Assembly (NCBI GenBank): GCA_964461095.1
Contig: CAYWRN010000011.1
Span: 1 to 32,204, forward strand
Source of the DNA: an uncultured Gammaproteobacteria bacterium
Lineage (GTDB): Bacteria; Patescibacteriota; Microgenomatia; UBA12405
Reading direction: 5' to 3'
Length of the DNA stretch: 32,204 bases
Shown here piece after piece: positions 1,995 to 17,578 of this stretch. A program made the position numbers and the translations under genes. Under the pieces are notes generated by a model, which was not told where the DNA came from, did not search any database, and saw only the letters and a list, made by a program, of their open reading frames with translations. Position 1 is the first letter of the stretch. Every line of letters begins with the position of its first letter.

Positions 1995-2004
1995 GAAAAC
2001 TTGA

Positions 2005-2271
2005 TTAGTAAACTTGATTGTGCGAGCCAATGTCATAAAAAACAACTGTATTTATATTTAGTTGAAAATAAACTACTCGAATATCTCCAGTGATAGAAAA
2101 AGACAAATAATCGTGCAACGACCCTGTTAACTTGTGATTCTTTAAGATTATATTTTGGGGATTTTTGGTAAATAAAGATAGTCTCTGTTTAAATTTCTTT
2201 TCTAAACTCTTATTACCTTTGATCCGTTTTTGGTAAGATTTTTTGAAATGAGAATGAAACTTGACAATCAT
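2005..2271 (-). CDS. type II toxin, RelE/YafQ (ParE-RelE superfamily)
   Basis: 88 aa. KSYQKR..., HKLTGSLHDYLSFSITGDIRVVY...IGSHNQVY is the typical RelE/YafQ layout. 4-nt overlap (ATGA) with the upstream small gene. Confidence 0.75.
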   Translation of the reverse strand: MIVKFHSHFKKSYQKRIKGNKSLEKKFKQRLSLFTKNPQNIILKNHKLTGSLHDYLSFSITGDIRVVYFQLNINTVVFYDIGSHNQVY

Positions 2272-2555
2272 TTGTTTAGATAATCGATCATATCATCAAC
2301 TTTTGCAAATGACTTGGTGACGTTTTTCCCAGCTACAACATCTTTGGTTAATTTGTTGTATCTGCTTAATGCTTTATGTGATAGTTGGTAAGATGGGTTG
2401 ATTAGGGACGGGACAAGTGTTTGACTTTTAATTTGGTGGAGGGTGAACCTAACCAGATCTTGAAGAGACGAAAAGCCCATGTTTTTGGCAATAACACTGA
2501 TTTCGTCCCGAAAGGATTTGTCAATAGGAACTTGAAGTATGGTAGATGTATTCAT
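2268..2555 (-). CDS. putative antitoxin of the RelE-like toxin
   Basis: 95-aa gene immediately upstream of the toxin and translationally coupled to it. N-terminal beta-strand/helix pattern (TILQVPIDKSFRDEISVIAKNMGFSSLQDLVRF) resembles ribbon-helix-helix/RelB-like antitoxins. Confidence 0.6.
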   Translation of the reverse strand: MNTSTILQVPIDKSFRDEISVIAKNMGFSSLQDLVRFTLHQIKSQTLVPSLINPSYQLSHKALSRYNKLTKDVVAGKNVTKSFAKVDDMIDYLNK

Positions 2556-2591
2556 ATATTATAATTATAATGGTTTTATAATACATGTCAA
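2556..2591 (-). promoter_or_regulatory. sigma70-type promoter of the antitoxin-toxin operon
   Basis: Minus strand reads TTGACA-N16-TATAAT-TATAATAT-ATG. Tandem TATAAT boxes form the palindrome ATTATAATTATAAT, a possible antitoxin operator. Leader is at most about 2 nt. Confidence 0.55.
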
Positions 2592-2596
2592 GAGAT

Positions 2597-3604
2597 TTAG
2601 ATTAGTTGGTTGACAGCAAGTTTGGATTTGACTTGTTTTAGAGTGCTAGAAACGACTTGTTGAGCTTTTTTGGTACCTTCGACCAGAATTTCTTTGGCCA
2701 GTTTGGGTCTGTCCTCGTAATATTTACGCTTATCTCTAATAGGAGCTAAAAAGTTATTTAGAGCAATAAAAAGTTTGTCTTTGACTTCCCTATCGCCTAC
2801 TTGGCCATTTTTGTACCTAGTTTCCAGATCTTTAACCTCATCAATGTTGGGGTTGAAGGCCCGGTGATAGTCAAAAACGGGATTGCCGTCAACACGGCCG
2901 GGGTCAGTGGCATGAATACGGGATGGATCAGTGTAACAGGCGTTAATTTTTTGCTTTAAAGTGGCTTCGTCGTCTGATAACAAAATGGCATTGTGGCCGG
3001 ATTTGCTCATTTTGTTGACTCCATCGGTACCTATAAGACGGGGAACACGACCGACCATGGCCTTGGGGACAACAAAAGTATCGCCAAAAGCACGGTTGAA
3101 ATCACGGGCGATTTCTCTAGTTTGCTCAATAACGGGTAACTGGTCTTCTCCAACCGGGACAAGATTGGCATTGAAACCTAAAATATCGGCAGCCTGAAGG
3201 ATTGGATAACAAATAAAACCCATAGACGGGTCAAACTTTTTATACTTGATTTCATCTTTGACTGAGGGATTTCTGACTGCCCTGGCATGAGTAACCATAG
3301 TTAGAAAATAAGAATAGAGCTCTAAAGTTTCGGGAATGCCTGACTCAAGATAAATAGTAGAAACCTTGGGATCGATACCAACTGCCAGATTATCTAAAAA
3401 AACCTGGTAAACATTTTGATTGATAATATCGCCCGACTTGTAATCGTTGGCGTAAGCATGGACATTGGCTAGTAAAATATAAGTATCGTACTGGTGTTGA
3501 AGTTTGACACGGTTTTCCAGCGTCCCTACATAATGACCTAAATGAAGCCGGCCACTAGGGGTGTCACCGGTAAGAATACGGGGTTTAGTATTTTTAGTAG
3601 TCAT
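2597..3604 (-). CDS. trpS: tryptophan--tRNA ligase
   Basis: Class I motifs TGDTPSGRLHLGHYVG (HIGH) and KMSKS. 335 aa, typical TrpRS length. Confidence 0.95.
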   Translation of the reverse strand: MTTKNTKPRILTGDTPSGRLHLGHYVGTLENRVKLQHQYDTYILLANVHAYANDYKSGDIINQNVYQVFLDNLAVGIDPKVSTIYLESGIPETLELYSYFLTMVTHARAVRNPSVKDEIKYKKFDPSMGFICYPILQAADILGFNANLVPVGEDQLPVIEQTREIARDFNRAFGDTFVVPKAMVGRVPRLIGTDGVNKMSKSGHNAILLSDDEATLKQKINACYTDPSRIHATDPGRVDGNPVFDYHRAFNPNIDEVKDLETRYKNGQVGDREVKDKLFIALNNFLAPIRDKRKYYEDRPKLAKEILVEGTKKAQQVVSSTLKQVKSKLAVNQLI

Positions 3605-3796
3605 AAAATTAATTAAATTTTAACATTGTAATTTGGGATAAGGACAAAAAAATATCCCTAAGCGGGACATTGAAAATTAATGACGTGTGTTAATCTCCCG
3701 CTTGAGGCTTATGCAAATTGCCAAAAACAAGAGATTAAAATAGTCATTTGGAGAGAGTATAACATGGTTGATATAAAATATATGGTAGTATAGGTT

Positions 3797-4132
3797 ATGA
3801 ATATAAATTTCCCAGACGATATATTATCTAAAAACAATACTGAATTGAAGCATATGATTTTGAAGGTAGGTCCAAAAGTGTTTGCTAGCTGGCTTGTCGA
3901 ATATTTAACTAGTAATGAATTTAAAAGAGAAAAAAATGATCTGGATATAACTACTCTAGAAAAAATTGCTTCTGTTATTGAAATTACCATAGCTTTATCT
4001 GATCTAAAAAGAGAGTTCTCTCCTAATCCAAGTAAACCGAATCCTGTAATCAAGCAGGATGTTGTTGATAGTTTTTTGTCAACTTATGAAAAGAGATTAG
4101 AAGAAAATAAACTAGGTGGCAATAGTAACTAA
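3797..4132 (+). CDS. hypothetical small protein (possible antitoxin partner of the downstream PIN-like gene)
   Basis: Charged helical 111-aa ORF. TGGTAGTAT box ends 5 nt before the ATG. 17-nt overlap with the next gene. Confidence 0.5.
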   Translation: MNINFPDDILSKNNTELKHMILKVGPKVFASWLVEYLTSNEFKREKNDLDITTLEKIASVIEITIALSDLKREFSPNPSKPNPVIKQDVVDSFLSTYEKRLEENKLGGNSN

Positions 4133-4640
4133 TTTTATAAACTGGTCTAATATATTAGAAAATAAATGGTTGATATTAGATTCGTGTGTTATTATTAATA
4201 TTTTTAAGTATAGATCTGAAGAGTTAATAGAAAAATTTAATAAAAAGAATGTGACTTTGTGTACAATACATCCGGTAGTGCTACAAGCCCTTAACACAGA
4301 TAATAAAGTAGAAAGAATTAGAATAAGAAGTTTTATACATAGCTATGTGACAATTCTACCTATGAATAACTTGCTCAAGAATGCCGAAGAAATGCAAGAA
4401 AATTTTATTTCTAGTGGTTGCAGACCGGATGCTATCGATTTTTATTTAGCGTCTGCAATTAGTACATATTCTAATGGAAAAACATTTTTAGCGACATCTA
4501 ACTTAAGTCATTTTCAAAAAAATTTTTTTGACAGAGTCGGCTATATTTTACTAGAAAATGATTCGTCGATTAATACTATTGCCTTGTTGGCGTATCGCAA
4601 TAATGAAACAAACGGTAATGATGAGGATATGCCTTTTTAA
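4116..4640 (+). CDS. PIN-like domain protein (degenerate VapC-like); start uncertain
   Basis: LILDSCVIINIF (first acidic residue), central E, DAIDFYLASA, then LATSNLSHF where PIN proteins usually have T.D..F. GTG start at 4116; a TTG at 4170 is also possible. Confidence 0.45.
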   Translation: MAIVTNFINWSNILENKWLILDSCVIINIFKYRSEELIEKFNKKNVTLCTIHPVVLQALNTDNKVERIRIRSFIHSYVTILPMNNLLKNAEEMQENFISSGCRPDAIDFYLASAISTYSNGKTFLATSNLSHFQKNFFDRVGYILLENDSSINTIALLAYRNNETNGNDEDMPF

Positions 4641-4693
4641 AATATGTGGTAGAATAGCAAGTTAAAAATTTACAAGCGTAACTGCTTTTAAAT

Positions 4694-5359
4694 ATGAATA
4701 AAACAAAAAGACATTTAATTGAAGCCAGTGTTAGAGAAGTTTTTGGCAGAAAGGTTAAAAGATTAAGGGCAGAAGGAATACTACCAGCCAGTGTTTACGG
4801 AAAAGACTTTAAATCTATATCGGTTCAAATGGATGGCAAAATGGCAAATGTGGCTTTCAACGAATTGGGCGAGTCAGGTTTGTTTGATCTAAAGGTGGTA
4901 TTTTTCAAAAATCCCCAATATCACCCGGTAACGGGAGAAATATTGCATATTGATCTGTATAAAGTAAATCTAAAAGAAAAAACAACTGTGGATGTACCAG
5001 TAGAGCTTATTGGCGAATCGCAATCAGTGAAGATGGGTAATGTATTAATGCATATTGTAGATAGTGTTGAAGTAGAAGCCCTACCAACTGATTTACCAGA
5101 AAAATTTGAGCTAGATATCGGCAAATTAATGACACTAGAAGATATGATAACAGTAGCTGATATTGCCTACGATAAGACAAAAATGACAATTGTAACCGAT
5201 GCTGATCAGGTGATTGCCAAGACCGAAGAACCTAAAGAAGAAGAGATTGTAGTAGCTGAAGCACCTCCTGAAGTAGAGGGAGAGATTAAGGCAGAGGAAA
5301 CTGAAGAAGGTAAAACTGAAGAGAAACCCAGCGAAGAGAAAGAAGAAAAATCAGAATAA
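4694..5359 (+). CDS. rplY: 50S ribosomal protein bL25 (Ctc form) with acidic C-terminal tail
   Basis: RKVKRLRAEGILPASVYGK... and YHPVTGEILHIDLYKV are bL25/Ctc signatures. Glu/Lys-rich tail. Confidence 0.85.
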   Translation: MNKTKRHLIEASVREVFGRKVKRLRAEGILPASVYGKDFKSISVQMDGKMANVAFNELGESGLFDLKVVFFKNPQYHPVTGEILHIDLYKVNLKEKTTVDVPVELIGESQSVKMGNVLMHIVDSVEVEALPTDLPEKFELDIGKLMTLEDMITVADIAYDKTKMTIVTDADQVIAKTEEPKEEEIVVAEAPPEVEGEIKAEETEEGKTEEKPSEEKEEKSE

Positions 5360-5782
5360 CTGGTGAAAAAGACGGTCTATGTCGGATCTGACCGGGTCTT
5401 GTTTTTGGGCTTTTTCGAGATATAACTTGGAACTATCTTGGTCACCTATGGTGTGGTAAAGAAGACTAACTTCTATAAGATCATCTGTGGAAAGAGTGGT
5501 CCTTTTTAATAAATTCGATATAGCTTGGGTAATATATTTAGGATGGTATTTTTGGGCAAGATAGGCAATATCCTGAGGATCAATTTGTTTGGCTAGTTCA
5601 TCGGCCCTGGTGAAATTTTGATCGATGACCAAATGGTGCCACTTAGCTAATTTCTGCTGGTACTGGTCACCAATTGATAAAGGGTAGTAACTAGTAATTA
5701 GTAACGAGAGACAAGTAACGAGGAGAGAGAGGAAACTAGGTACTAGAAACTGTCGGCCAAGACGAGGCGGCAATAAGGTCAT
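5351..5782 (-). CDS. hypothetical membrane-anchored protein
   Basis: N-terminal TM helix (FLVPSFLSLLVTCLSLLITSY) then a helical repeat-like region. Overlaps the valS 3' end by 47 nt and the rplY 3' end by 9 nt. Confidence 0.5.
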   Translation of the reverse strand: MTLLPPRLGRQFLVPSFLSLLVTCLSLLITSYYPLSIGDQYQQKLAKWHHLVIDQNFTRADELAKQIDPQDIAYLAQKYHPKYITQAISNLLKRTTLSTDDLIEVSLLYHTIGDQDSSKLYLEKAQKQDPVRSDIDRLFHQLF

Positions 5783-7682
5783 CGGTTAATTTTAGCTTAT
5801 TTCTTAGCTCCTGGTAAATAGACTCAGTAGCGAATGGTATAAAGGGATGCATAAGCTTAAGACAGGTTAAGAGGATGTGGTAGAGAACGGGGACGACCTC
5901 AACTCCTCTATCTTTAGTGGATTCGATATAAACATCACAAAAATAGTGCCAAAAATAGGCATAAAGCTCTTCAGTGGCTTGACCAAAACGATAGGAATTG
6001 ATTTTCTTGGTGACGGAAACAATTAATTCATTTAGTTTTTTTAGAGCCTCTTGATCTGTCTTAATTAGCTTTGATTGATCAATTTTGGTCAGGTTTAAAT
6101 TGGGATTAGTCTCCAGGAAACGATCGGAAATGATAGTAACAAAACGGCTGGCGTTCCAAATTTTGTTGACAAAATTACGCATGGATTCGATTTTTTTGTC
6201 AGACAAGGCAATATCACTGGCCGGAGCAACACCATAAACCAGAGCAAAACGAAGAGGATCGGCACCATATTTTTCGACGATAGTAGAAGGATTGATAACA
6301 TTGCCTTTGCTCTTGGACATTTTTTGACCTTGTTCGTCGGTAACTTTGGCATGAAGATGAACAGTTTTAAAAGGCGTATCGCCAGCTAGATAGTATCCCA
6401 TGATCTGCATCCGGCCGACCCAAAAAAAGAGGATATCCGACAGAGTATCCATAACAGAAGTGGGGTAAAAATGGCTAAAATCTGGATGAGATTTAGCAGG
6501 ATCTTCGACGTTGAAACCGAGGGTGGTCAGGGGCCATTGGCTAGATAAAAACCAGGTATCAAAAGTATCGGTTTCCTGCAAGATATGAGACCCGCCACAC
6601 TTGGGACAGGCTTTGGGGGCGTCAACATAATAAGTGGCGTCGATAGGGGCATTTAGGGACTGAAGACCAGAAACAATTTGGCTAAAGTCGTATAAATTTT
6701 TTAGGGATTTATAAGAACCGGAAATAAATTTTTTATCTTTGTCCAGGAAATTTAGTTGAATGTCGGGGTGACAATCAAGACAGTACCAAGCCGGAATCCG
6801 GGGACCCCAGACATTTTGACGGCTGATGTTCCAATCTCTAATGTTTTCCATCCAATCAAGATAAACTTTTTTGAAGCGAGTGGGAAAAAGTTTGGTATGG
6901 CCGTCTTTAACGGATTTGATGACAGGTTTGGCAAGAGGGGTGGTTTTGACATACCACTGAGGCATCGGCAGTGGTTCGATTAGATTTTGACAACGGTAAC
7001 AAACAGAAACAGTGTGCTCAAGAGGCTCAATTTTGATAAGTTTACCAGCCTTTTTGAGAAGCTCAACAGTTTGGGTACGAGCCTGTTTGGGAAAAAGACC
7101 ATCAATTTTGGGAATAGTGTTGACCATATGGCCATCGGGCTGAATACAAGAAACTAAACTAAGACCATGTCGCTTACCGATTTCAAAATCAGTGGCATCG
7201 TGGGCCGGAGTAATTTTGAGGGCATCGGTACCAAAACCGATTTCTACCAAGTCGTCGGCAATAATAGGAATTTCCTTGTCAATTAAAGGAATTTTGGCCA
7301 TTTGACCAACTAAAGACTTATATTTTTTGTCTTTGGGGTTGACGGCAACAGCGACATCAACAAAGATGGTTTCGGGACGGGTGGTGGCGATTTGGATAGA
7401 ACCATAGTCCAGATAATAAAGAAAATCTGACCTGTTCTGGTGGTCAATTTCCAGATCAGAAAAAGCAGTACCACAGTGAGTACAATAATTAACGATCCGG
7501 TCATCACGGTACAAAAGACCGTCGTGGTGCATTTTTTTAAAGGTAGCCAAAACTTGCTTGACTATATCTGGCTCTAAACTATAGTGATAACGGCTCCAGT
7601 CGAGAGCAAAACCAAGCTGTTTTAATTGGAATTGATTGAGATGACGATTTTCTTCGACATAGTCCCAAATCATTTGGTACAA
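5736..7682 (-). CDS. valS: valine--tRNA ligase, C-terminal 649 codons (downstream of an in-frame TAA)
   Basis: CP1 editing, Zn-type CxxC...CxxC, KMSKS (KMSKSKGNVI) and anticodon-binding regions. The reading frame continues upstream to 7733 with ValRS-like sequence (KNLSKKGQSRFDFDRDTLYQMIWDY). The 'start' at 7682 is only a TTG in that frame. Confidence 0.9.
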   Translation of the reverse strand: MYQMIWDYVEENRHLNQFQLKQLGFALDWSRYHYSLEPDIVKQVLATFKKMHHDGLLYRDDRIVNYCTHCGTAFSDLEIDHQNRSDFLYYLDYGSIQIATTRPETIFVDVAVAVNPKDKKYKSLVGQMAKIPLIDKEIPIIADDLVEIGFGTDALKITPAHDATDFEIGKRHGLSLVSCIQPDGHMVNTIPKIDGLFPKQARTQTVELLKKAGKLIKIEPLEHTVSVCYRCQNLIEPLPMPQWYVKTTPLAKPVIKSVKDGHTKLFPTRFKKVYLDWMENIRDWNISRQNVWGPRIPAWYCLDCHPDIQLNFLDKDKKFISGSYKSLKNLYDFSQIVSGLQSLNAPIDATYYVDAPKACPKCGGSHILQETDTFDTWFLSSQWPLTTLGFNVEDPAKSHPDFSHFYPTSVMDTLSDILFFWVGRMQIMGYYLAGDTPFKTVHLHAKVTDEQGQKMSKSKGNVINPSTIVEKYGADPLRFALVYGVAPASDIALSDKKIESMRNFVNKIWNASRFVTIISDRFLETNPNLNLTKIDQSKLIKTDQEALKKLNELIVSVTKKINSYRFGQATEELYAYFWHYFCDVYIESTKDRGVEVVPVLYHILLTCLKLMHPFIPFATESIYQELRNKLKLTDDLIAASSWPTVSST

Positions 7683-7733
7683 AGTATCTCGATCAAAATC
7701 AAACCTAGATTGACCCTTTTTACTAAGGTTTTT

Positions 7734-8015
7734 TTAGAAAACAAACTGGGTTTCGATACCAGCATGATCGGCACCGGGAAGCCACATAACTTCTTCGCCC
7801 AACATTTTGTGAAATCTAATTAAAATATCCTGAATGACAAACATGGCGTGACCCATATGCATGGGATCATTGGCGTTGGGTAGGGGTAAAATAATGGAAA
7901 AAGGTTGGTCTTTAGACGATTTGGTGGACTTGGTGATAGCAGGACTGTAGATTTTACTATTTTCCCAAAGGGAGTAAATTTCGGCCTCAGATGCGGGATT
8001 ATAACGCTTGTCCAT
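7734..8015 (-). CDS. valS: valine--tRNA ligase, N-terminal 93 codons (ends at the in-frame TAA 7734-7736)
   Basis: PLPNANDPMHMGHA (HIGH-region equivalent) and WLPGADHAGIETQ. Same frame as 5736-7733. Confidence 0.9.
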   Translation of the reverse strand: MDKRYNPASEAEIYSLWENSKIYSPAITKSTKSSKDQPFSIILPLPNANDPMHMGHAMFVIQDILIRFHKMLGEEVMWLPGADHAGIETQFVF

Positions 8016-8030
8016 AGGGGTATTTTAGCA
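8016..8030 (-). promoter_or_regulatory. extended -10 promoter of valS (leaderless geometry)
   Basis: Minus strand reads TGC-TAAAAT-ACCCCT-ATG. A TTGTCA -35-like hexamer lies upstream. Confidence 0.5.
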
Positions 8031-8131
8031 TGAGATAGTTGACAATTTGTGACTGATAAAATCGATATGTACTAAAAGTGCTCTGGTTAATCATTGAATA
8101 TGTATGTATCTCTTTGTAAAATACGCTTATT

Positions 8132-8467
8132 GTGACAAAATTGGGATCATTAATACAACAAGCCCTAAACGCTAATAGAAGTAGTGGTGATTGGTATCCG
8201 GCTGTCGATTCTTGCAGTAAGCGTGCTGTGCCCTGCGGTAATCCTTCTTGCCTCGATAATGCTATGTGGTCAGTAGAAAACCCGATTGCAGCTAGTCAAG
8301 GAATGAAAGAGGCAAGAAAACTTGTTGTTGGTTGTGGAAAAAGTGGAGTTGGTTGTGCTCTAACCAGATACGAAGGGGTGAGTCCACTGGATGTTTTGGG
8401 TACGTTTAGGGCAAGGTACGTCGATGTATATACTATGGTTGTAGCAAGGTCAAAAAATGGTAAATAA
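8132..8467 (+). CDS. hypothetical small Cys-rich protein (orphan)
   Basis: 111-codon ORF with a GTG start. Arg/Gly/Cys/Val-rich, visibly unlike the Lys/Asn/Ile-rich neighbours. Confidence 0.45.
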   Translation: MTKLGSLIQQALNANRSSGDWYPAVDSCSKRAVPCGNPSCLDNAMWSVENPIAASQGMKEARKLVVGCGKSGVGCALTRYEGVSPLDVLGTFRARYVDVYTMVVARSKNGK

Positions 8468-8494
8468 TGAAATATTAGTTTAGGTTCATAGGTA

Positions 8495-8535
8495 TGAGAA
8501 AATAAGGCATGAATTACCTAAGATTAGGGAATTAA
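8495..8535 (+). repeat. copy a of the tsaC promoter + 5' stub (8-codon mini-ORF MNYLRLGN*)
   Basis: TGAGAAAAT-aaggc-ATGAATTACCTAAGATTAGG GAATTAA. Shares 19/19 nt (TGAATTACCTAAGATTAGG) with copy b and the first 12 nt of that core with the real tsaC start. Confidence 0.75.
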
Positions 8536-8546
8536 TTAATATATAG

Positions 8547-9755
8547 TTATTGCACTGAAAAAGTATCTGTTTCGTTGCTATTGATATCAAACAAACTGTA
8601 AGAGGTAAAGGTAGATGGATTATTACCATATTCTGATGCTCCTACTACAAGAATATTTCCATTTATCCACTGTTTGTGATAACCCGATAATTCGTGAACT
8701 ATCTGACTGGTTGAGGTGTCCCAAATTATTGTTTTGGCTTGCCATCTGCCTTGTTCAATTTGATCACCTTTTTTATAGTAGGCCAGATACTTACCTGTGT
8801 TATTTAAAAGAGGCATTTGAACTGAAGCCCAGGGACCAGAATCAACAATGTTACCATCTTGATCCGGAAATTCGGAGAAGGTGATTCTAACACCCGTATC
8901 AGTATTGCCATTATCAACAGTTCTGCTCCAATATTTACCATCAGCAGAAAAAGTGTTTTGGCGACCAAATGAAGTTATTTCATAGTTGACGGTAGCATAA
9001 TCAGCCTCAAAGGTGTCAACATTAAACAAAACCAACCTATTGGCTTGCGCCATACTTCCACTTTGGCTTAGTTCGACTAAGACTCGACTGGAGTCAACAA
9101 ATTTGTCAGCAGTTTTTAATGGATAAAGATAAGTATCGATACCCGAATCTAGGTTAAAAGTGTGGAAACCAGGAGAATTTGATACTGAGAATTGTTCTAT
9201 TGTTCCCCAGGGAGGTTGTATCATCATCTCTCCTCCTTGTTTGCGGATATATAAATCGTCCTGGGGTGAATGGAATAATAATTTTGTACTATCTGGTGAC
9301 CAATCTGTAATGTAATCAACCGGATAATCAGTAATTTTTTGAGTTTGTTGGCCTGTGGCGGAAATAATATATAGATTTTTATTATCATCCAAATTAATAA
9401 AGGCGATATATTTGCCATTTGGTGAAGCAAGGGGGTCACTGTCTCCAAAACCGTAGGCACCACCACCACTGGTAACTTTATACTGGGTTGGTTGAATCTG
9501 CTTGTCAGTTATTGAGTAAAGGTTCAAGGTATTGTCTTTTACAAAAGGAATGGCCATATTTGATGTTTCAGGCTTAGCCCATTGTATTTTGGAAACTTGA
9601 TTGCTATCGTTCTTGGTGGGTTCAACTTGAAGATCTGGTTTGGAGACTGAGACACAGTTTTTGAACTTGTTTCCAAAGTAAAATCCACCTGAAGGTAAAT
9701 GGATAAGTAGAATGATTATTAGGAGAATTCTGATACTTTTTTGGATTAGTGCCAT
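8547..9755 (-). CDS. TolB-like beta-propeller (PD40 repeat) protein, membrane-anchored
   Basis: N-terminal anchor. PD40-like repeats SPNGKYIAFI..., DWSPDSTKLLF, FSADGKYW, NNTGKYLAY. Confidence 0.7.
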   Translation of the reverse strand: MALIQKSIRILLIIILLIHLPSGGFYFGNKFKNCVSVSKPDLQVEPTKNDSNQVSKIQWAKPETSNMAIPFVKDNTLNLYSITDKQIQPTQYKVTSGGGAYGFGDSDPLASPNGKYIAFINLDDNKNLYIISATGQQTQKITDYPVDYITDWSPDSTKLLFHSPQDDLYIRKQGGEMMIQPPWGTIEQFSVSNSPGFHTFNLDSGIDTYLYPLKTADKFVDSSRVLVELSQSGSMAQANRLVLFNVDTFEADYATVNYEITSFGRQNTFSADGKYWSRTVDNGNTDTGVRITFSEFPDQDGNIVDSGPWASVQMPLLNNTGKYLAYYKKGDQIEQGRWQAKTIIWDTSTSQIVHELSGYHKQWINGNILVVGASEYGNNPSTFTSYSLFDINSNETDTFSVQ

Positions 9756-9835
9756 GATTTAGTATTACACGTACAGATAATTACTACAAACACCGATAAA
9801 CTTACCAGTAACTTAATAGCGAATGAGTTTTGAGA

Positions 9836-9888
9836 TGGTAAAATATGGTGTGAATTACCTAAGATTAGGCAAAGATAAATGGTGTTAA
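9836..9888 (+). repeat. copy b of the tsaC promoter + 5' stub (12-codon mini-ORF VNYLRLGKDKWC*)
   Basis: TGGTAAAAT-atggt-GTGAATTACCTAAGATTAGGCAAAGATAAATGG TGTTAA. Compare the real start ATGAATTACCTAAAGATGGGCAAAGATGATGG at 10492. Confidence 0.75.
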
Positions 9889-9892
9889 CTTA

Positions 9893-10264
9893 TCAGCTAA
9901 CTGAAAGTGTTATTGAAGATAATGACCTTCCCTTGGCTAAGTTGGATTTTACCTCCGCAACTGTGCTATCAGCTTCAAGAGCAAAATCTCTTTTTCGAGT
10001 GGCATCATCTACAGAGCTAGCCACACCAGCCCTTGTTGCTGCAATTTCTTGAACGTGATAACAGGCTAATTTAAACCCTAATTCATTACTAATCGGAACT
10101 GTTGCCGTATATCCCTCTGAGTCTGTAATTACCATCTCCGATCCTTTTTTATCAGCTGTAAGTTGATATGTTATGGTGGCAACATTAATTGGGCTGCGAT
10201 AGTCTACTGTACCATCAGAACTTTTAACATGAAAAGCAACCTCATCTAAACTAACATGTTCCAT
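9893..10264 (-). CDS. hypothetical protein (orphan; possibly the 3' part of a frameshifted gene)
   Basis: 123-codon ORF. Its frame stays open and protein-like for 22 more codons upstream of the ATG (IQYPDWYTDLPKPDNPAAYF). Confidence 0.5.
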   Translation of the reverse strand: MEHVSLDEVAFHVKSSDGTVDYRSPINVATITYQLTADKKGSEMVITDSEGYTATVPISNELGFKLACYHVQEIAATRAGVASSVDDATRKRDFALEADSTVAEVKSNLAKGRSLSSITLSVS

Positions 10265-10440
10265 AAAATAAGCTGCGGGGTTGTCGGGTTTTGGAAGATC
10301 TGTATACCAATCTGGGTATTGTATACAACATCAATCACTTTTTCACCTGGTGTAAATAATAAATTTTCATCTGGCCTGCGTTCTCGTGCCACAGACATTG
10401 CCATATGTGCTAACGATGATTTTTCTTGTCGTTCATTCAT
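10246..10440 (-). CDS. hypothetical protein (possibly the 5' part of the same frameshifted gene)
   Basis: 64-codon ORF overlapping the next ORF by 19 nt in another frame. Confidence 0.35.
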   Translation of the reverse strand: MNERQEKSSLAHMAMSVARERRPDENLLFTPGEKVIDVVYNTQIGIQIFQNPTTPQLILWNMLV

Positions 10441-10476
10441 AGTTCGGTTAACATATTAATGACTATCTTAATAAGA

Positions 10477-10491
10477 TGATATCATAAGGGT
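10477..10491 (+). promoter_or_regulatory. extended -10 promoter of tsaC-tsaE (leaderless geometry)
   Basis: TGA-TATCAT-aagggt-ATG. Confidence 0.5.
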
Positions 10492-11589
10492 ATGAATTAC
10501 CTAAAGATGGGCAAAGATGATGGACAAATTAAAAAAATTGCTAAAGTAGTAAAAAGTGGTGGATTAGTAGTGTTCCCGTTTGATACCTGCTATGTGTTTG
10601 TGGTTGACCCAACTAATCAAGAAGCAGTTGATAAACTGTATGAAATTAAAGGAAGATCGATAAATAAGGCGGTATCGGTGGCTGTAGGTGATCTAGACAT
10701 GGCTCAAAAATATACAAAAATGACTAAACAAAATTTACTAATATGCCAAAAACTTCTGCCAGGCCCGTTTACGATGGTGGTGGAAGGTAAACATAAACTA
10801 GCTAAAGGTATCGAGGCGACGGATGGCAGTTTGGGAATCAGAATACCGGATTTTAAACCAGTACAGGACCTAGCTAAAGCTCTAGGAGTACCGATAACAG
10901 CCACATCGGCTAATGTGTCCGGACAAAGCATTTGCCATAATTTAGCAAGCCTTAAAAATCAATTATCTAGCAAAAAAGAAGCGTTGGTGGACTTGTGGGT
11001 GGATGGAGGACAATTGGCAGTCAGACAAGCTTCAACAGTAATGGATATAAGGGGGAAAAAAATTAAAACACTAAGGCGGGGAGATATTGTATTGGACAAA
11101 AGCGGAAAGGGCCTGGTATCGGAATCAGTAAAGGAAACTAAGACCGTAGCCAAAATGATTTTTGAGAAGGCAATAAAAAATAATAGTCAAAAGCCACTAG
11201 TGTTCTTTTTGACAGGAGACTTGGGCTGTGGCAAAACAGTATTTGCTAGAAAAATAGGCAGGATACTGGGGATAAAAGGCAAAATAGTGTCACCGACTTT
11301 TAATATCATAAACAATTATGATGTAAGATTTAAGATACAAGATTTAAGAATAAAAGAATTTTTACATATCGATTTGTACAGGATAAGAGAAGAGGAGGAA
11401 CTGGAGGAATTGGGATTTTTAAAGTTATTTAATAAAAATACCATTACTTGTATCGAATGGCCGGAAGTGATGGGTAAAAATTATTTTGAAAAATTACGAG
11501 AGAAAGTTTACTGCGTTGACGTTAGTTTTGAGTACGGGGAAACCAAAAAACAAAGAAGAGTTTGGTTTAATTTATCTCAATGCAATTGA
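10492..11589 (+). CDS. tsaC: fused L-threonylcarbamoyladenylate synthase (TsaC/YrdC domain) and t6A ATPase TsaE
   Basis: N-terminal half: YrdC/Sua5 motifs (IKGRSINKAVSV, ITATSANVSGQ, RGD). C-terminal half: TsaE P-loop GDLGCGKT, SPTF, HIDLYRI...ELG. Confidence 0.85.
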   Translation: MNYLKMGKDDGQIKKIAKVVKSGGLVVFPFDTCYVFVVDPTNQEAVDKLYEIKGRSINKAVSVAVGDLDMAQKYTKMTKQNLLICQKLLPGPFTMVVEGKHKLAKGIEATDGSLGIRIPDFKPVQDLAKALGVPITATSANVSGQSICHNLASLKNQLSSKKEALVDLWVDGGQLAVRQASTVMDIRGKKIKTLRRGDIVLDKSGKGLVSESVKETKTVAKMIFEKAIKNNSQKPLVFFLTGDLGCGKTVFARKIGRILGIKGKIVSPTFNIINNYDVRFKIQDLRIKEFLHIDLYRIREEEELEELGFLKLFNKNTITCIEWPEVMGKNYFEKLREKVYCVDVSFEYGETKKQRRVWFNLSQCN

Positions 11590-11955
11590 TGGAATCGGAA
11601 TAATAGTTGGATTATTTTGAACAAGTTCTGTGTTGATTCTGGTAATGACTGTGTTTAACAAAGCTGAAAGTTGAGACCTTTGACCATCACAAGGTATTAC
11701 TAAATGATTATCTAGGGGTAAAACACCAAAGTTTTGGCCTAAAACTGGTGATCTGTTTTCGATAACCGCCTGTGTAATGGTATATGTACTTAGTAAAGAA
11801 GCATGAATTCGAATAACTTCGGGTGGAGTATCAATTGGATACCGTAAAGTTTTAGTATAATAATCAAACATTCCGATGCTTGGATAAATACCAAGTGCTC
11901 TTTGATACAAACTAGAATCCATGCTGATCCACTGAAGTGAAACTTGTTCCGTCAT
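11572..11955 (-). CDS. hypothetical protein (orphan)
   Basis: 127-codon ORF. TGA-TATAAT box ends 7 nt before the ATG. Converges on tsaC-tsaE and overlaps it by 18 nt. Confidence 0.5.
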   Translation of the reverse strand: MTEQVSLQWISMDSSLYQRALGIYPSIGMFDYYTKTLRYPIDTPPEVIRIHASLLSTYTITQAVIENRSPVLGQNFGVLPLDNHLVIPCDGQRSQLSALLNTVITRINTELVQNNPTIIPIPSIALR

Positions 11956-11988
11956 AATATGAATTATATCAAATACTATAGGGTAAGT

Positions 11989-12669
11989 CTAGTTGAGAAA
12001 AGCGAAGGATTGGATGAATTGATCGCATTCGGTAATCAAAGCTTCGAGGCCGTTGTGAACACATTGGATAGTAAAGAAAAGACCGGATGGTGATTTGAAA
12101 TCGACTAATTTTTGGGAAGTGGTCTCAAAAACAAATGTAGGCTGACCTAAAAGAGTAAATTTACTTGTCAGTTCCCTACCGGAATGAACCCAGGTCCAGT
12201 CTGCTTGGCCAAGATGAACGACAAAGTTACCATCTGGATGGGTAAATACAAATCTATTGGTGGTAGAAGTCTGGTCGGTAAAAAGAGTCCTGGTGGACCA
12301 ATAATCAACTTTGAATTTGAACTGATCATTTTGGTAGGTTTTTAAGTAAGGAGCTTCTGGGGTGGGAGTAGGCAAGACTTTGGGGGAAGTAGTGGCTTCC
12401 GGAGCAGTTGGTTCGGTCTCTACAGGTGTTTGGCTCGGGGTAACGGTAGGCTGAGGAGTAATGATTTCTACAGAAGTAGGGCTAAGGTTACTGGTATTGT
12501 AAATAACCAACTCTTTGGATAACCTGGCAATGGCATAATTGTAGGCCAAAAGACTAAGGGCAACGAAGATAACGCTTAGGACAAAGAAGAGAAAATAGGG
12601 TGGTTTTTTGGCTCCTAGTTTTCTTAGGTCCGAGCGATTAGTAGAGTGGGGCATCAGGTTAATTATCAA
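11989..12669 (-). CDS. hypothetical membrane-anchored protein with a Pro/Thr-rich linker
   Basis: TM helix (YFLFFVLSVIFVALSLLAY), PT-rich spacer, globular C-terminal domain. 12669 is a TTG; the ATG at 12654 (MPHSTNRS...) is the more likely start. Confidence 0.6.
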   Translation of the reverse strand: MIINLMPHSTNRSDLRKLGAKKPPYFLFFVLSVIFVALSLLAYNYAIARLSKELVIYNTSNLSPTSVEIITPQPTVTPSQTPVETEPTAPEATTSPKVLPTPTPEAPYLKTYQNDQFKFKVDYWSTRTLFTDQTSTTNRFVFTHPDGNFVVHLGQADWTWVHSGRELTSKFTLLGQPTFVFETTSQKLVDFKSPSGLFFTIQCVHNGLEALITECDQFIQSFAFLN

Positions 12670-12714
12670 TTTTCAATTTACAATTTTCAAGTAGTAGGGG
12701 GAATTTGATATAGT

Positions 12715-13776
12715 ATGGATATGAAGATTTTGGCCATAGATACCAGCTGTGACGATACTTGTGCTTCAGTGATTGAGGACGGAAAGATAGTTAGTAATGT
12801 AATTTCGTCACAAATCAGTCTACATGAAGAATGGGGAGGGGTGGTACCAAATCTAGCCAGGAGGGCACATTTAGAAAGAATAGATGCCGTAATTGCTAAA
12901 GCACTACACAAAAACCCTTTCCTAACCCTTCCCTTGACAGGGCAGGGAAACTATTTTGAAGGTATAGATGTGATCGGGGTAACTATCGGCCCGGGATTGT
13001 CACCGGCACTAGGGGTAGGAGTAGATAAAGCTAAAGAGTTGGCAAAAAAATATAATAAAAAACTGGTGGCTGTTAACCATGTGGAGGGGCACTTGCTATC
13101 CCCTTTTTTGACCAATAGTAAAGGGAAACCAGAAAGAGATATAAAGCTTCCTATACTGGCCCTAACAGTGTCAGGCGGACATACCAAAATAGTACTAATC
13201 AAAGAAATTGGAAAATATGAAGTAGTTGGAGAAAGTCTGGATGATGCCGGAGGGGAGGCTTTGGACAAGGCTAGTAAAATGTTAGGGTTGGGGTATCCAG
13301 GTGGGCCAATTATTGAAAAATTAGCTAAAAGTGGTAATCCCCTATTTTTGACTTTACCTATTCCGATGAAAGGGAGTAAAGATTTAAATATGTCGTTTTC
13401 GGGCTTAAAAACGGCCTTTTATTATGCTATCCGAAAATGGGATCAGGAGAAAATAATTGAAAATCTGGAAAATTTGGCAGCTTCGTTTCAAAAAGCGGTG
13501 TTTGATAGCCTGCTCTTTAAATTTAATAAGGCAATTGATGAATATAAGGTAAAAAGTTTATTTGGGGTGGGCGGAGTGATGAATAATATGAGCCTAAGAC
13601 GGGAGTTAAGGAAATTGGCAAAATCTAAAAACTTACCTATCTATTTTCCTTTTCAAAAAAACTTAAACGGAGACAATGCGGCCATGATAGGCTTGGTGGC
13701 TTGTCACAAGGCAAAAGGGGGTGAATTTACTAGACATATAGATAAACTAGACCGGGAACCAAGGCTGGAACTATAA
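12715..13776 (+). CDS. tsaD: tRNA N6-adenosine threonylcarbamoyltransferase TsaD
   Basis: MKILAIDTSCDDT, HEEWGGVVPNLARRAH, GPGL, NHVEGH, SGGHT, GYPGGP, GGV..N. The likely true start is the ATG at 12721, 6 nt after TGATATAGT. Confidence 0.95.
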   Translation: MDMKILAIDTSCDDTCASVIEDGKIVSNVISSQISLHEEWGGVVPNLARRAHLERIDAVIAKALHKNPFLTLPLTGQGNYFEGIDVIGVTIGPGLSPALGVGVDKAKELAKKYNKKLVAVNHVEGHLLSPFLTNSKGKPERDIKLPILALTVSGGHTKIVLIKEIGKYEVVGESLDDAGGEALDKASKMLGLGYPGGPIIEKLAKSGNPLFLTLPIPMKGSKDLNMSFSGLKTAFYYAIRKWDQEKIIENLENLAASFQKAVFDSLLFKFNKAIDEYKVKSLFGVGGVMNNMSLRRELRKLAKSKNLPIYFPFQKNLNGDNAAMIGLVACHKAKGGEFTRHIDKLDREPRLEL

Positions 13777-13779
13777 CTA

Positions 13780-13814
13780 GATTGAAGATGTAAGATTTAG
13801 GATTTAAGAAATAA
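13780..13814 (+). repeat. tandem heptanucleotide array (GATTGAA GATGTAA GATTTAG GATTTAA GAAATAA)
   Basis: Five 7-nt units starting 4 nt after the tsaD stop, degenerating on to about 13842. Positions 13794-13814 are identical to 24022-24042. Confidence 0.75.
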
Positions 13815-14200: not shown

Positions 14201-14461
14201 ATGGATTTGATATTTGCTTATTGTGAAAGAGGAGGTGTAATAGGTGTAGTGCCTAAAGATGGTAGTCTTCGAGCAGTATGTGAGTGGTGTACAAGAGGGT
14301 TGCGTCCTAAAAGAGCTAGCTCGGCATTGGATTTAGAAAGATTTGAGGAAACTTTATACACTAAACCTGGGTTAAGGGTGAATTTTAAGGTTGCTAGTTG
14401 CGACAATCCCCCACCGGTTGAAGAGGTTCCACAAGCAAGAGTAGAACTGATACAACCATGA
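14201..14461 (+). CDS. hypothetical small protein (orphan, Cys-containing), coupled to the patatin-like gene
   Basis: 86 codons. C...CEWC motif. TGA-TATTAT box ends 6 nt before the ATG. Stop overlaps the next start (ATGA). Confidence 0.5.
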   Translation: MDLIFAYCERGGVIGVVPKDGSLRAVCEWCTRGLRPKRASSALDLERFEETLYTKPGLRVNFKVASCDNPPPVEEVPQARVELIQP

Positions 14462-15255
14462 CTAAAAAACTTGGATTAGCCTTAGGATGTGGAGGGTGGA
14501 GAGGGTTGGTACATGCCGGAGTAATTAAATCACTTGAGAAAAACCATATTAAAATAGATTATCTAGCTGGTAGCAGTATTGGAGCGATAATTGGTGGACT
14601 ATATGCAGTAACCGGTAAGATTGAAACAGTCGAGGAAATCATTGGCAGTATAGGCTATAAAAACATATTTAGAGTAGTTTGGGACAAACCACTAAGGAAG
14701 AAAAACGGCTTAATAGACGGGCAAGAGATGGATAAATTTTTTAGAAAAATAGTGGGAGATATCAAAATTGAGGATTTAAAAATACCATTTAGGGCAGTGT
14801 GTGCCGATCTATATAGCGGCAAACTAGTGGCGATTGACAAGGTGTATCTGGTATTAGCCATGAGAGCCAGTGCGGCCATACCTGTCTTGCTTAAAGCGGT
14901 GGAATGGGAAGGGAAAACATTAATAGACGGAGGAGCTATATCCCCTGTTCCCTGCCAGGTATGTAAAGATATGGGAGCGGATGTGGTAGCAGGAGTCAGC
15001 TTATATGGGGGAATTTTCCCAATAAAAAAGAAAGGTAGATTAACGAAACTAGGGATGGCCAAAATGGCCAGATTTTTGCCATTAAAAACATTGGCAGATC
15101 ATGATCTTATGAAGGCCGATGTCATAATCGAACCTAAAATCGAAGGAGAAGACTATGGACTTTTGGCCAATTTGGTCAGAAACAAAGGAGTAATGGATTG
15201 CGGAGTAAAGGAAACTGATAAAAAAATTGAGGAAATAAAAGCACTTTTGGGGTAA
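14458..15255 (+). CDS. patatin-like phospholipase (RssA/YlbK-like)
   Basis: Oxyanion GCGGWRG, nucleophile elbow GSSIG, catalytic Asp in IDGG. Confidence 0.9.
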   Translation: MTKKLGLALGCGGWRGLVHAGVIKSLEKNHIKIDYLAGSSIGAIIGGLYAVTGKIETVEEIIGSIGYKNIFRVVWDKPLRKKNGLIDGQEMDKFFRKIVGDIKIEDLKIPFRAVCADLYSGKLVAIDKVYLVLAMRASAAIPVLLKAVEWEGKTLIDGGAISPVPCQVCKDMGADVVAGVSLYGGIFPIKKKGRLTKLGMAKMARFLPLKTLADHDLMKADVIIEPKIEGEDYGLLANLVRNKGVMDCGVKETDKKIEEIKALLG

Positions 15256-15263
15256 AATAGGCG

Positions 15264-15860
15264 ATGATAAAGTACTGTAGTAAGGAATATAAATTTCTGG
15301 ATAAAGTGTATGTGGCTATTTTGTGGTTTTTGGACAAAGACGACAATTTGTCGATGGCACTTAGTTCACAATTACATAAAAATATTGGCGAAGTAGAAAG
15401 CTATATAAAAGGCTTGATAACTATATTGAAGAAAAAGAGGATTGAAGAGGTTTATGAAGTAGATGTTTACGAACTAAAATTGAAGGTACTAATTGAAAAT
15501 AGAGCAGAATACTGGACGAAGATACCTGAAAAAGAAAAAATTGATGAAGGAACAATGACGGAAAAAATTAGCTGGCTGAAGCCTTTTATGAAAAGTCCCC
15601 TACTGTACGATGTACTGGTAGTACCCAGGAATGAAGTGGGGGGAGAAATGATATTTGATGTGGCTAAACCTTTTTTGAAAGGATCGGCTAGTATGAAAAA
15701 GATTGAGGATTTTATGTACTATTCGACTCAAATAGTAGAGCCGACAGCTAAACATAGTGCTGTGTATGAAGTAAGTGATCTGATAGTAATTGACTGGAAA
15801 ACAGGCAAAAGAAAAAAGGAAATGCTAACTAAAGTGGATGACGACGAGCTGATGGACTAG
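15264..15860 (+). CDS. hypothetical protein
   Basis: 198-codon ORF with host-like Lys/Glu-rich composition. TAAAAT ends 5 nt before the ATG. Confidence 0.6.
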   Translation: MIKYCSKEYKFLDKVYVAILWFLDKDDNLSMALSSQLHKNIGEVESYIKGLITILKKKRIEEVYEVDVYELKLKVLIENRAEYWTKIPEKEKIDEGTMTEKISWLKPFMKSPLLYDVLVVPRNEVGGEMIFDVAKPFLKGSASMKKIEDFMYYSTQIVEPTAKHSAVYEVSDLIVIDWKTGKRKKEMLTKVDDDELMD

Positions 15861-17578
15861 GGAGTGGGGCCTCGGCGGTAGACGGCGGCCCAGGCGGTGT
15901 AACTACTACTAAAGGTTTGCTGATGAAGGATTTGACCATCTCGGGTAACTGTCCAGTCGAAGGCAGTTTTTAGACCAGGAATACGTTGCTCGACCTGGAC
16001 GAGCTGACCAGGAGCCAAGGTGGGATCATCAATAAACTTATCCGGCGGGGGTTGGGCGTAATCCCACTGTCTATAATTGTCGATAGTAACCTGCCGACCA
16101 TCGCTGGTACCATAAATTTCGTAAGATAGAGCTTTGGTATCACCGTCGAAAATACTTTGGATAAGAATGTGATGAGCAGTGTCATTTTGGAATTTGAGGT
16201 CGGGACTAGGTAAGAAAACAGTAGCATCGAAACCAGGCTTGGAACCTTCTTCGTAATAAGAAACACGGTAGGCATGAGGACGGCGTTCTACAATAGGCAG
16301 GCCGGCGTTTAGAATAGCCCTAAAAAGAGTAGTACTAACCTGGCAAATACCACCACCAACATCGAGCTCAGTCCGGCCTTCTCTGATAACATAGGCCATC
16401 TTGTAACCGGTTTCGACAGATACTTCACCAAGATTTTGGTTAAAGGAAAAAGTATCACCAGGAGGAACCAGAATGTAGTTAACAACTTCGGCTCCCCTTT
16501 TGACATTGCTGTTTCTAATAGTGCTACTGTGCTTGAAAGATGAATCTCCTCGGCCCAATAGCTCTTTGATGCCTAAATCATTGGCATCTTCATTTTTGAT
16601 TTGAGGATCGGTATAAACAAAAGGGATATCAATAGGATCATTGGGAGAATTTGGATCTGCAGTTAATGACAGTAACCGATTTTGAAGGGTGTTGGTAAAC
16701 GATACAATATCAATTTGACGACCGGGAGAGCTAGATTTAAACTCGCTAACTTTGCCATTTTCGAATTTAAAAACAGCGTCAACCGGGCCACGCTTAAGAT
16801 TTTGATTTAATTCGTCAACAAAAGTAGAGATTTTGACAGTGTCAACAGACTGGTAAAAACCCAACCAGGAAATAAGGGTGGTATCAGAGATAGTATAATC
16901 TTGGGAATCAGGAATATTTAGGGTAATCTGTTTGCCTTTTAGGTTTTGGGCCTGAGTTAAAAGATTTTGGATTTGAGCATCGGTGGGTAGCTGGCCAATA
17001 GTAATAAAGGTCAGGCTAATAGGAGAACTATCTTGAGTGGATAACTGATAGAGAAGATCGGCAGTAAATTTTTGGTCATCAAGAGTACGACCCAAGCTAC
17101 CCTGGATGACAGATAAACTACCCTGGTAATCAACATCAATCTGAGGAGGGACAAAAGGCTGGTCAATTTTGAGCTTTAAATCTCTGATCAATTCATCCAA
17201 TTGGTCACTTTGGTAAGCAACATTTAAGAAATAATGCCTTGGGGAAAAGAAGAAAAGTTTGGCTAAAACGTCGGTATAAAATGTTTTTTGAACCATTTTG
17301 TCGACATCGATTTGAGCGGAAATTGAGGCAGTATTGAGAGTAGAAACAACAGTATCGTCTACTTTTAGATCGATGGTTTCCGGCAACAAAAAGCTAGAGT
17401 TAATTTTTTGGGTGAGTTCGGGCTTGGTTAGAAGGGAAAAATCCTGGTCAAGAATATAGGTGTTGGGAGTAGTGGTATAAGAAAAAAGGATAAGACAAAT
17501 GAGAGGAAAGGAAAGGATGGTGGTAATAAGGATAATAGAGAGTCTAATTTTGATTTTGGTTGCTTTAATTTTGGCCAT
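15857..17578 (-). CDS. VanW-family protein with a C-terminal G5-like domain, membrane-anchored
   Basis: VanW core GGGICQVSTTLFRAILNAGLPIVERRPH. N-terminal TM anchor. Confidence 0.85.
   Translation of the reverse strand: MAKIKATKIKIRLSIILITTILSFPLICLILFSYTTTPNTYILDQDFSLLTKPELTQKINSSFLLPETIDLKVDDTVVSTLNTASISAQIDVDKMVQKTFYTDVLAKLFFFSPRHYFLNVAYQSDQLDELIRDLKLKIDQPFVPPQIDVDYQGSLSVIQGSLGRTLDDQKFTADLLYQLSTQDSSPISLTFITIGQLPTDAQIQNLLTQAQNLKGKQITLNIPDSQDYTISDTTLISWLGFYQSVDTVKISTFVDELNQNLKRGPVDAVFKFENGKVSEFKSSSPGRQIDIVSFTNTLQNRLLSLTADPNSPNDPIDIPFVYTDPQIKNEDANDLGIKELLGRGDSSFKHSSTIRNSNVKRGAEVVNYILVPPGDTFSFNQNLGEVSVETGYKMAYVIREGRTELDVGGGICQVSTTLFRAILNAGLPIVERRPHAYRVSYYEEGSKPGFDATVFLPSPDLKFQNDTAHHILIQSIFDGDTKALSYEIYGTSDGRQVTIDNYRQWDYAQPPPDKFIDDPTLAPGQLVQVEQRIPGLKTAFDWTVTRDGQILHQQTFSSSYTAWAAVYRRGPTP

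Follow-up and report, generated by a model that had tools for sequence, protein, structure and literature searches.

A probable tandem array of small, non-autonomous cassettes docked at the start of tsaC in a Shapirobacteria-like bacterium

How does the 5' end of an essential gene come to be repeated several times in front of that same gene? The question is raised by the interval between valS and tsaC on contig CAYWRN010000011.1 (assembly GCA_964461095.1), a stretch of 32,204 nucleotides (the window, in the following) which, by the source names of the homologues of its TsaC-TsaE protein, comes from a Shapirobacteria-like bacterium of the Candidate Phyla Radiation (CPR). A preliminary description, made from the sequence alone, had reported three copies of the tsaC promoter and first codons, and had proposed serial insertion at, or recombination through, the 5' end of the gene. 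The analysis reported here indicates that the interval is probably a tandem array of small non-autonomous cassettes, docked at a single point of the tsaC-tsaE gene, after position +20 of its coding sequence.

A repeat search of the window returned three repeats of the tsaC start on the same strand (8506-8535, 9847-9876 and 10489-10518; families D1 and D2), which correspond to three direct copies of the tsaC-tsaE promoter and start, labelled a, b and c in Table 1. Their starts are spaced by 1341 nt (a to b) and 642 nt (b to c). The 19-mer TGAATTACCTAAGATTAGG, shared by copies a and b, occurs exactly twice (8510-8528 and 9851-9869), against 0.02 occurrences expected by chance. When all open reading frame (ORF) starts were scanned by local alignment, tsaC alone among the window genes showed extra copies of its start (score 26, with a background not exceeding 20.5), and none were found for further genes of the window. 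The three copies, and the 19 nt common to two of them, were therefore borne out by the repeat search, the 19-mer count and the alignment scan. The reading frame of stub a runs for 8 codons before a TAA, and that of stub b, opened by a GTG, for 12 codons before a TAA, the same lengths as first described; each interval between copies also contains, as had been noted, one locus on the minus strand, encoding proteins of 402 and 186 aa respectively. A degenerate fourth copy, suggested at 8054-8075, did not hold: its score with the 37-nt consensus is 11, whereas chance matches elsewhere in the window reach 12-15, and it was rejected as a generic leaderless promoter of the form TGnTAnAAT-N4-7-ATG.

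On contigs of 12-32 kb, copies of the tsaC start are restricted to the valS-tsaC interval and have a single orientation throughout. Nine copies from four lineages could be aligned over a common unit, from about -24 to +20, of the form GATGATAAAAT-AGGAA-ATGAATTACCTAAGGTTAGG; in four of the five stubs, similarity ends directly 3' of TTAGG. Searches of viral contigs gave no match to the exact 19-mer and 20-mer, while a degenerate pattern, used on metagenome and viral contigs, gave over 200 matches, nearly all of them due to chance, contig L097 alone being relevant.

The source of the window is a metagenome assembly, in which valS carries an in-frame stop and a 13-bp deletion is also present; it might be suspected on these grounds that the copies are an assembly artefact. 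The interval, with all three copies, is identical in three Logan assemblies obtained from different runs (L001-L003), from which the window differs by three single nucleotide polymorphisms (SNPs) and a 13-bp indel. Its presence in these assemblies, as well as in the NCBI metagenome-assembled genome, indicates that the array is not an artefact. Moreover, the copies differ from each other, which is not expected from assembler collapse or duplication, and arrays with a putative toxin-antitoxin (TA) pair, described below, are found in at least nine independent contigs. The probability of an artefact is considered negligible.

Only four TsaC-TsaE sequences more than 52% identical to that of the window were found among 5.8 billion proteins. 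The five lineages compared here were obtained from the contigs of these homologues, from one metagenome contig found by pattern (L097), and from contigs reached via a cassette protein. In the window and in L001-L003, stub a, the 402-aa gene, stub b, the 186-aa gene and the active copy c follow one another. L308 has the 186-aa gene with a c-type stub, a TA pair and the active copy; L097, L319 and L320 have a stub, a 202-nt noncoding piece, a second stub, a TA pair and the active copy; L004 and related strains have one stub, a RelE/ParE-like TA pair (87 and 82 aa) and the active copy; in L087, tsaC is directly adjoined by the upstream gene, with neither stub nor TA pair. The comparison across relatives, which the preliminary description had called for, hence reveals differences in the presence and absence of cassettes; tsaC is in frame in all lineages.

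L308 is composed of four adjacent segments. The first contains a c-type promoter and start, together with the 186-aa gene and the region upstream of it, and is 96.6-97.2% identical to the window through CCTAAAGATGGG, that is up to +20. The second is a 605-bp putative TA element, similar to the RelE/ParE type, located exactly after +20; the third is a promoter and start 97% identical to the active copy of L097; the fourth is a tsaC body 82% identical to that of the window, fairly evenly along its length. It follows that copy c, active in the window, has been reduced to a stub in L308 by DNA inserted exactly after +20. The occurrence of three adjacent segments with three different nearest relatives is as expected of independently moving cassettes. 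Between L001 and L308, identity is 96.6% over the part of the 186-aa cassette and 82% over the tsaC body (Fisher p = 3e-15), and the TA element is 88.9% identical between L308 and L319, against 73.6% for the tsaC bodies (p = 3e-12). As judged by sequence identity, two cassettes have thus moved horizontally between species. Occupied and empty sites can also be paired among relatives: the tsaC body of L087 is 87% identical to that of L004, yet L087 is devoid of both TA element and stub, and the window is TA-free where L308 is occupied. The serial insertion proposed at the 5' end of the gene, with tsaC retaining a working promoter and start, is borne out by this comparison. As far as can be read from the alignments, insertion is serial, in one orientation and at one nucleotide position, and the incoming DNA brings a promoter and the first 20 nt of the gene. 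The idea that each event regenerates promoter and start codon was right in that tsaC keeps both, but these appear to be carried in on the tsaC-proximal end of the cassette, the old ones being displaced.

The position of the join can be narrowed down from L308. Its stub is of the window, or host, type through AAAGATGGG, its active copy is of the L097, or element, type through AAGGTTGGG, at least to +18, and the left end of its TA element (GTTAATAGAC) matches the left ends found in L004 and L097. According to the alignments, the two partners were joined within +18 to +20, a stretch in which GG(G) is all that they have in common. For a crossover left of +13, two coincidences would have to be assumed, and this was rejected; the same argument from L308 disposes of a crossover of the integron type, between G and TT of a GTTRRRY core, at +15/+16 (GTTAGGC is present in some copies). 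Conserved sequence is found on the promoter side of the join only, the other side varying by cassette (GAATTAAT, CAAAGATAAATGG, GTTAATA/ATCAATA, ATCAAAACC); in the TA element, this non-promoter end is no more than 2 nt away from the stop codon of the toxin gene. The sole inverted repeat of the unit, about 45 nt long, is CCTAA-NN-TTAGG. Single-strand folds of the cassette ends were no better than those of shuffled sequences, with z-scores between -1.6 and +1.1, and no subterminal hairpins were found.

Direct repeats around the inserts are also expected from a single crossover, and the copies are 65-87% identical to each other. An entry requiring no dedicated enzyme, through a RecA-dependent single crossover (Campbell type) or homology-facilitated illegitimate recombination, could in principle use the homology of about 45 nt at the tsaC 5' end. 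Against this stand the two copies of L308, one of the window type through +20 and the other of the L097 type to at least +18, with no mosaic or chimeric copy; the identical runs between partner sites, which are 5-7 nt at most; and the three nearest relatives of three adjacent segments. Homologous recombination was rejected for these reasons, as was the recombination through the repeat put forward in the preliminary description, the join being precise at +20; enzyme-free entry in any form is regarded as very improbable.

With +21 of the stub and +20 of the active copy taken as its limits, the TA element is 605 bp long in L308, in L097/L319 and in L004/L312. For its 87-aa protein, matches that fall short of the curated cut-offs were obtained to the YafQ, ParE, HigB and YoeB models (E = 6e-4 to 2e-2), and a PHROG family of RelE-like toxins was matched at 1.5e-4; the gene for the 82-aa partner overlaps that of the 87-aa protein by 4 nt. 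In a 33-nt patch, from -57 to -25 relative to the tsaC ATG (9944-9976 in L004, 748-780 in L097), elements of the L004 type differ completely from those of the L097 type, although the two types are equal in length and 81-89% identical outside it.

The cassettes might alternatively be decayed remnants, similar to cis-mobilizable elements (CIME), of integrase-bearing elements or prophages targeting the tsaC 5' end, which accreted there and are immobile in their small form. Accretion is an established model for arrays of integrative and conjugative elements (ICE) and integrative and mobilizable elements (IME), and integration into gene 5' ends, leaving the product nearly unchanged, is also known (PMC5704250). 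Two features look like leftovers of deletions, namely the 202-nt noncoding piece of L097 and the junction at -29 between the L004 and L097 stubs. The TA element, however, has the same length and the same ends in three lineages, and it reached a window-type site, in L308, as a unit of that form; judged from these ends, it evidently moves in its 605-bp form. Nor was any recombinase fragment found in any of four different cassettes from five lineages. Decay from larger elements is hence considered unlikely, although not to the same extent as enzyme-free entry. The 202-nt piece, which is cassette-like and without ORFs, is located between the two stubs at about 1510-1310 of L097 (minus strand) and at 134-335 of L319 (reverse complement), and contains internal repeats, CTCCTCAATCCTCCACTTG and CTCCTTCTCAATCCCCCCCTTGA.

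In the favoured model of a tandem cassette array, each cassette would carry its cargo on the strand opposite to tsaC, under a promoter of its own, and its tsaC-proximal end would hold the first 20 nt of tsaC, preceded by an outward leaderless promoter (extended -10 box TGnTAnAAT at 5-6 nt from the ATG). Insertion would be a precise break-and-join at GG(G), fusing the promoter and 20 nt of the cassette in frame to the tsaC body, so that the essential gene stays expressed; the earlier promoter and 20 nt would be pushed upstream to form a stub, the cassette nearest to tsaC being the newest. The window would then read: stub a, 402-aa cassette (right end b), 186-aa cassette (right end c), tsaC body. 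A plausible leaderless promoter can be recognized for the gene of each cassette, back to back with the tsaC promoter. Cassettes may be excised as circles between two +20 sites and re-inserted at the active copy by a site-specific recombinase supplied in trans. The predicted circle junctions are CCTAAAGATGGG joined to CAAAGATAAATGG for the 186-aa cassette, CCTAAGATTAGG joined to GAATTAATTAAT for the 402-aa cassette, and CCTAAGGTTAGG joined to GTTAATATAC for the TA element; at the predicted empty site, stub b or stub a would be followed by CAAAGATGATGGACAA.

No integrase or transposase domains were found in ORFs of at least 90 aa of the 32-kb window, nor in the gene tables of L001 and L004, and the array is in this respect integrase-less, as had been anticipated. 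The enzyme presumably acts in trans, and a core as short as 2-3 nt, with conservation on one side only, points to one that is similar to serine recombinases or is otherwise of the small-core kind. Since tsaC would depend on the promoter of the cassette, imprecise loss of the latter should be lethal, and the cassette would be stabilized in this way besides TA addiction. More tentatively, and with somewhat less than even confidence, the elements may be viewed as an undescribed class of minimal (0.2-1.3 kb) non-autonomous CPR cassettes homing to codon 7 of tsaC, each making a "promoter hostage" of the gene, moved by a small-core recombinase in trans and forming an integron-like capture platform without an adjacent integrase.

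Local duplication of the tsaC 5' region, with the copies retained because they act on the cassette genes as antisense promoters or encode short leader peptides, was also considered. Stubs face the 3' ends of the cassette genes, and good extended -10 boxes are kept in stub b (TGGTAAAAT) and in the L097 stubs (TGATATAAT and TGATAAAAT), which makes antisense transcription from the stubs, suggested in the preliminary description, possible. On the other hand, copies segregate with the cassettes and not with the host, stub peptides vary in both length and sequence, and signs of decay are evident: stub b starts with GTG, stub a has TGAGAAAAT, and the L004 stub has TAAAAC, its -10 box having lost the final T. 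Decay in several stubs weakens the case for a conserved antisense role, and functional duplication is held to be highly unlikely as the origin of the copies; their function is a matter apart from their origin, and some residual antisense transcription may occur.

Several points weigh against the cassette model. The available contigs yielded neither a recombinase nor an autonomous relative of the cassettes; neither an excised circle nor an empty-site read has been observed. The lineages are only five, the key contigs (L308 and L097/L319/L320) are 1.5-1.8 kb long, and L308 is a single contig, although a chimera would require three different genomes to be joined without shared k-mers. The boundaries of the cassettes in the window were set by analogy with the TA element and by comparison with L308, which spans the right part of cassette 2 only. 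The upstream region of L087 does not match the L004 stub, and the L004 and L097 stubs are alike only from -29; this last junction indicates that deletions or other rearrangements also remodel the arrays.

In more distant Shapirobacteria, the valS-tsaC-tsaD synteny is conserved, and valS is divergent from tsaC in 45 of 78 loci. The distance between the valS and tsaC starts is bimodal (L007-L086): 11 loci have 47-50 nt and the remainder 0.1-2.7 kb, with several around 700-800 nt. As read from the 11 compact loci, the ancestral state is one with no genes between valS and tsaC, and the intervening DNA of the window has all been added; the interval is variable across the group, and its bimodal size points to a general insertion hotspot. 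Analysis of 80 such tsaC loci, totalling about 1 Mb, revealed no upstream tsaC stub above background, old degenerate stubs being undetectable by this approach. The repeats found there are hairpins similar to repetitive extragenic palindromic (REP) sequences, low-complexity repeats and tRNA duplicates. The REP-like family (AAACCCCTCTGTC...CTCCCCTTAAAAAAGGGAG) is intergenic and was seen in L024 (6106-6189 and 8214-8294), L025, L027, L046, L053 and others. Pairs of 100% identical tRNA segments, 220-330 nt apart, occur in L007 (458-490/786-818), L017 (25-56/348-379) and L031 (1338-1484/1640-1704), and may represent tRNA paralogues or, alternatively, stubs of tRNA genes that small insertions have left behind.

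The features of the interval are reported in Table 1. Cassettes would dock between 10511 and 10512, where two bases of tsaC codon 7 have been read, and the left end of cassette 2, CAAAGATAAATGG, resembles tsaC from +21 to +33.

Table 1. Features of the valS-tsaC interval, as interpreted under the cassette model. Positions refer to the window; upstream and downstream limits of the promoter-start units are given relative to the start codon.
Feature	Position	Strand	Remarks
valS	5736..8015	-	left border of the interval; Pfam tRNA-synt_1 and Anticodon_1
generic leaderless-type promoter, TGATAAAAT-N4-ATG, with 2-codon ORF	8054..8075	+	not a tsaC copy
111-aa orphan ORF, left of the array	8132..8467	+	no Pfam, PHROG or PADLOC match
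stub a, putative oldest displaced promoter and start (-24 to +20)	8485..8528	+	-10 box TGAGAAAAT at 8495-8503; ATG at 8509
cassette 1, 1341 bp	8529..9869	.	cargo 402-aa beta-propeller gene (-); right end is copy b
402-aa secreted beta-propeller, hydrophobic N-terminus	8547..9755	-	weak Pfam Tricorn_N, DPPIV_N, PD40
stub b, right end of cassette 1, putative formerly active promoter and start	9826..9869	+	-10 box TGGTAAAAT at 9836-9844; GTG at 9850
cassette 2, 642 bp (655 bp in L001)	9870..10511	.	cargo 186-aa orphan (-); right end is copy c
186-aa orphan gene	9893..10440	-	frameshifted in the window; no family matches
copy c, active promoter and start	10468..10511	+	TGATATCAT at 10477-10485; ATG at 10492; probably from cassette 2
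tsaC-tsaE fusion, 365 aa	10492..11589	+	Pfam Sua5_yciO_yrdC and TsaE; body from 10512

Homologues of the 402-aa protein, 44-55% identical, are found in other CPR genomes, at unrelated loci and with no stubs there, a distribution which fits cargo capture. The 186-aa gene is intact in L001-L003 and in L308; in the window it is split into two ORFs by the deletion of 13 bp (TGTATCTGCTCAC) after 10323 (10323/10324), between TGTAT direct repeats. The 111-aa orphan ORF is confined to contigs of the same strain and absent from the L004 lineage, and is either backbone or an older insertion. No matches to Pfam, PHROGs or PADLOC were obtained for the orphan proteins, exact look-ups of the window proteins led to the same strain only, and an Rfam scan returned nothing in the interval. 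Scans for sigma-70 promoters and terminators gave counts equal to those of shuffled sequences, and were therefore uninformative.

The in-frame stop of valS, at 7734-7736, is due to a single SNP (7736, A in the window and C in L001), the sole difference from the intact valS of L001, which encodes 759 aa; the A may be an error of the consensus or, alternatively, a true nonsense allele of an essential gene. Extended -10 boxes TGnTAnAAT, 4-7 nt 5' of an ATG, were also found at 13842, 20645 and 29436 on the plus strand and at 11971, 8030 and 28507 on the minus strand, and from such motifs leaderless mRNAs look like the rule in this genome. A further repeat, ATAACTAGATTTAGGATTTAAGA, is located right after the stop codons of three plus-strand genes (1960-1998, 13773-13811, 24015-24053) and inside the TsaE linker (11320-11347). 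Two of the four repeats coincide in position with stretches left unaligned in the comparison of the window with L001 (11306-11353 and 13799-14458). Identity between the two is mosaic, being 99.6% over 1986-11306, 96.0% over 11353-13799 (the tsaE end, two orphans and tsaD) and 99.0% over 14458-17996, which suggests recombination between strains. The two orphan genes, of 127 and 226 aa, lie on the minus strand between tsaCE and tsaD (11572-12669); at the same place L005 has three orphans unrelated to them. This gap is a second variable slot, and no stub copies were detected in it. A tmRNA with smpB nearby and two tRNA genes are located at 24128-24552, 25223-25633 and 390-541, all on the minus strand.

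CPR bacteria, or Patescibacteria, have tiny genomes in which few recognisable mobile elements have been described, and how they gain accessory genes is poorly understood. The tsaC case offers a sequence-defined docking site, a family of cassettes with mapped ends, a comparison of empty and occupied sites, and evidence that cassettes have passed from one species to another. With the sequences of the circle and empty-site junctions predicted, the responsible recombinase can be sought by a direct test. The promoter of an essential gene appears to be repeatedly turned over by mobile DNA, and the dependence of that gene on the cassette promoter suggests a retention strategy on top of TA addiction. 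A short, one-sided attachment site with a core of 2-3 nt could also serve as a tool.

A search of the literature, not exhaustive, gave nothing specific on tsaC, yrdC or sua5 as an attachment site, or on such cassettes in CPR. Integrons, together with the clusters of attC sites lacking integron-integrases (CALIN), are docking platforms on which small, mostly single-gene cassettes are stacked, TA and noncoding ones included, with the newest next to the platform. The array at tsaC is similar in stacking small cassettes, also TA and noncoding ones, at a platform with no recombinase among them; unlike integron cassettes, those at tsaC would bring their own promoters, reading away from the platform, and the platform is the start of an essential gene. 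No gene for the tyrosine recombinase IntI was found next to the array, in the same ORFs and gene tables searched for integrases, and attC sites, which are imperfect palindromes of 57-141 nt at the cassette 3' ends, are absent, the unit being about 45 nt long and folding no better than shuffled sequences. An integron or attC array was accordingly rejected, none of the three features examined (intI, attC and the G/TT crossover) being found.

In staphylococcal cassette chromosome mec (SCCmec) and pseudo-SCC elements, serial cassettes at the 3' end of rlmH are bounded by repeats of the target end, and some need a recombinase in trans. They differ from the tsaC cassettes in the 3' end target, in their much larger size, in having known serine recombinases (ccr) and in their Firmicutes host. 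Integrative mobile elements exploiting Xer (IMEX) and pdif modules are small, often contain TA pairs, and are moved by a host enzyme with no recombinase of their own. Their sites are dif-like and 28 bp long, inverted in the case of pdif, and no such site is evident at the tsaC array, although this was not specifically tested. The cassettes may or may not belong with the non-autonomous elements of the IS200/IS605 type (palindrome-associated transposable elements, PATE), which insert 3' of a short target without duplication and have conserved subterminal hairpins at both ends. Insertion 3' of ...TTAGG/ATGGG without duplication would fit that family, but no significant or conserved hairpin is found at either end of the cassettes, and the left end is inside coding sequence, the toxin stop codon starting 2 nt from the junction.

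In the tycheposons of Prochlorococcus, successive integrations at one site push older elements inward and leave partial copies of the target (bioRxiv 10.1101/2020.12.28.424599). Unlike the tsaC cassettes, these elements target tRNA genes, carry tyrosine recombinases and are kilobases long. In the accretion of ICE and IME, an integrated element is reduced by decay to a CIME, with attL and attR retained, after which the att site beside the target gene receives a new element (PMC5704250). Arrays of this kind share with the one described here the tandem elements at one gene-end site, the gene restored by sequence borne on the element, the displaced ends forming direct repeats, members without integration genes, and the newest element lying beside the target gene. 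Features expected of accretion were found at tsaC: copies, junction and an in-frame gene, occupied as well as empty sites, and element identity higher than tsaC identity; a cognate integrase on a related autonomous element was not found on the available contigs. By contrast, the target at tsaC is the 5' end of an essential gene, promoter included, in a CPR host; the elements, of 0.2-1.3 kb, carry no recombinase; and the core is 2-3 nt, the repeat being a replacement promoter with 20 nt, distinct from the region of crossover. Among known systems, the accretion of site-specific integrative elements comes closest, and the tsaC array is set apart from it by four differences: tiny recombinase-less cassettes, the evident mobility of the TA element in its 605-bp form, a very short core and a replacement promoter.

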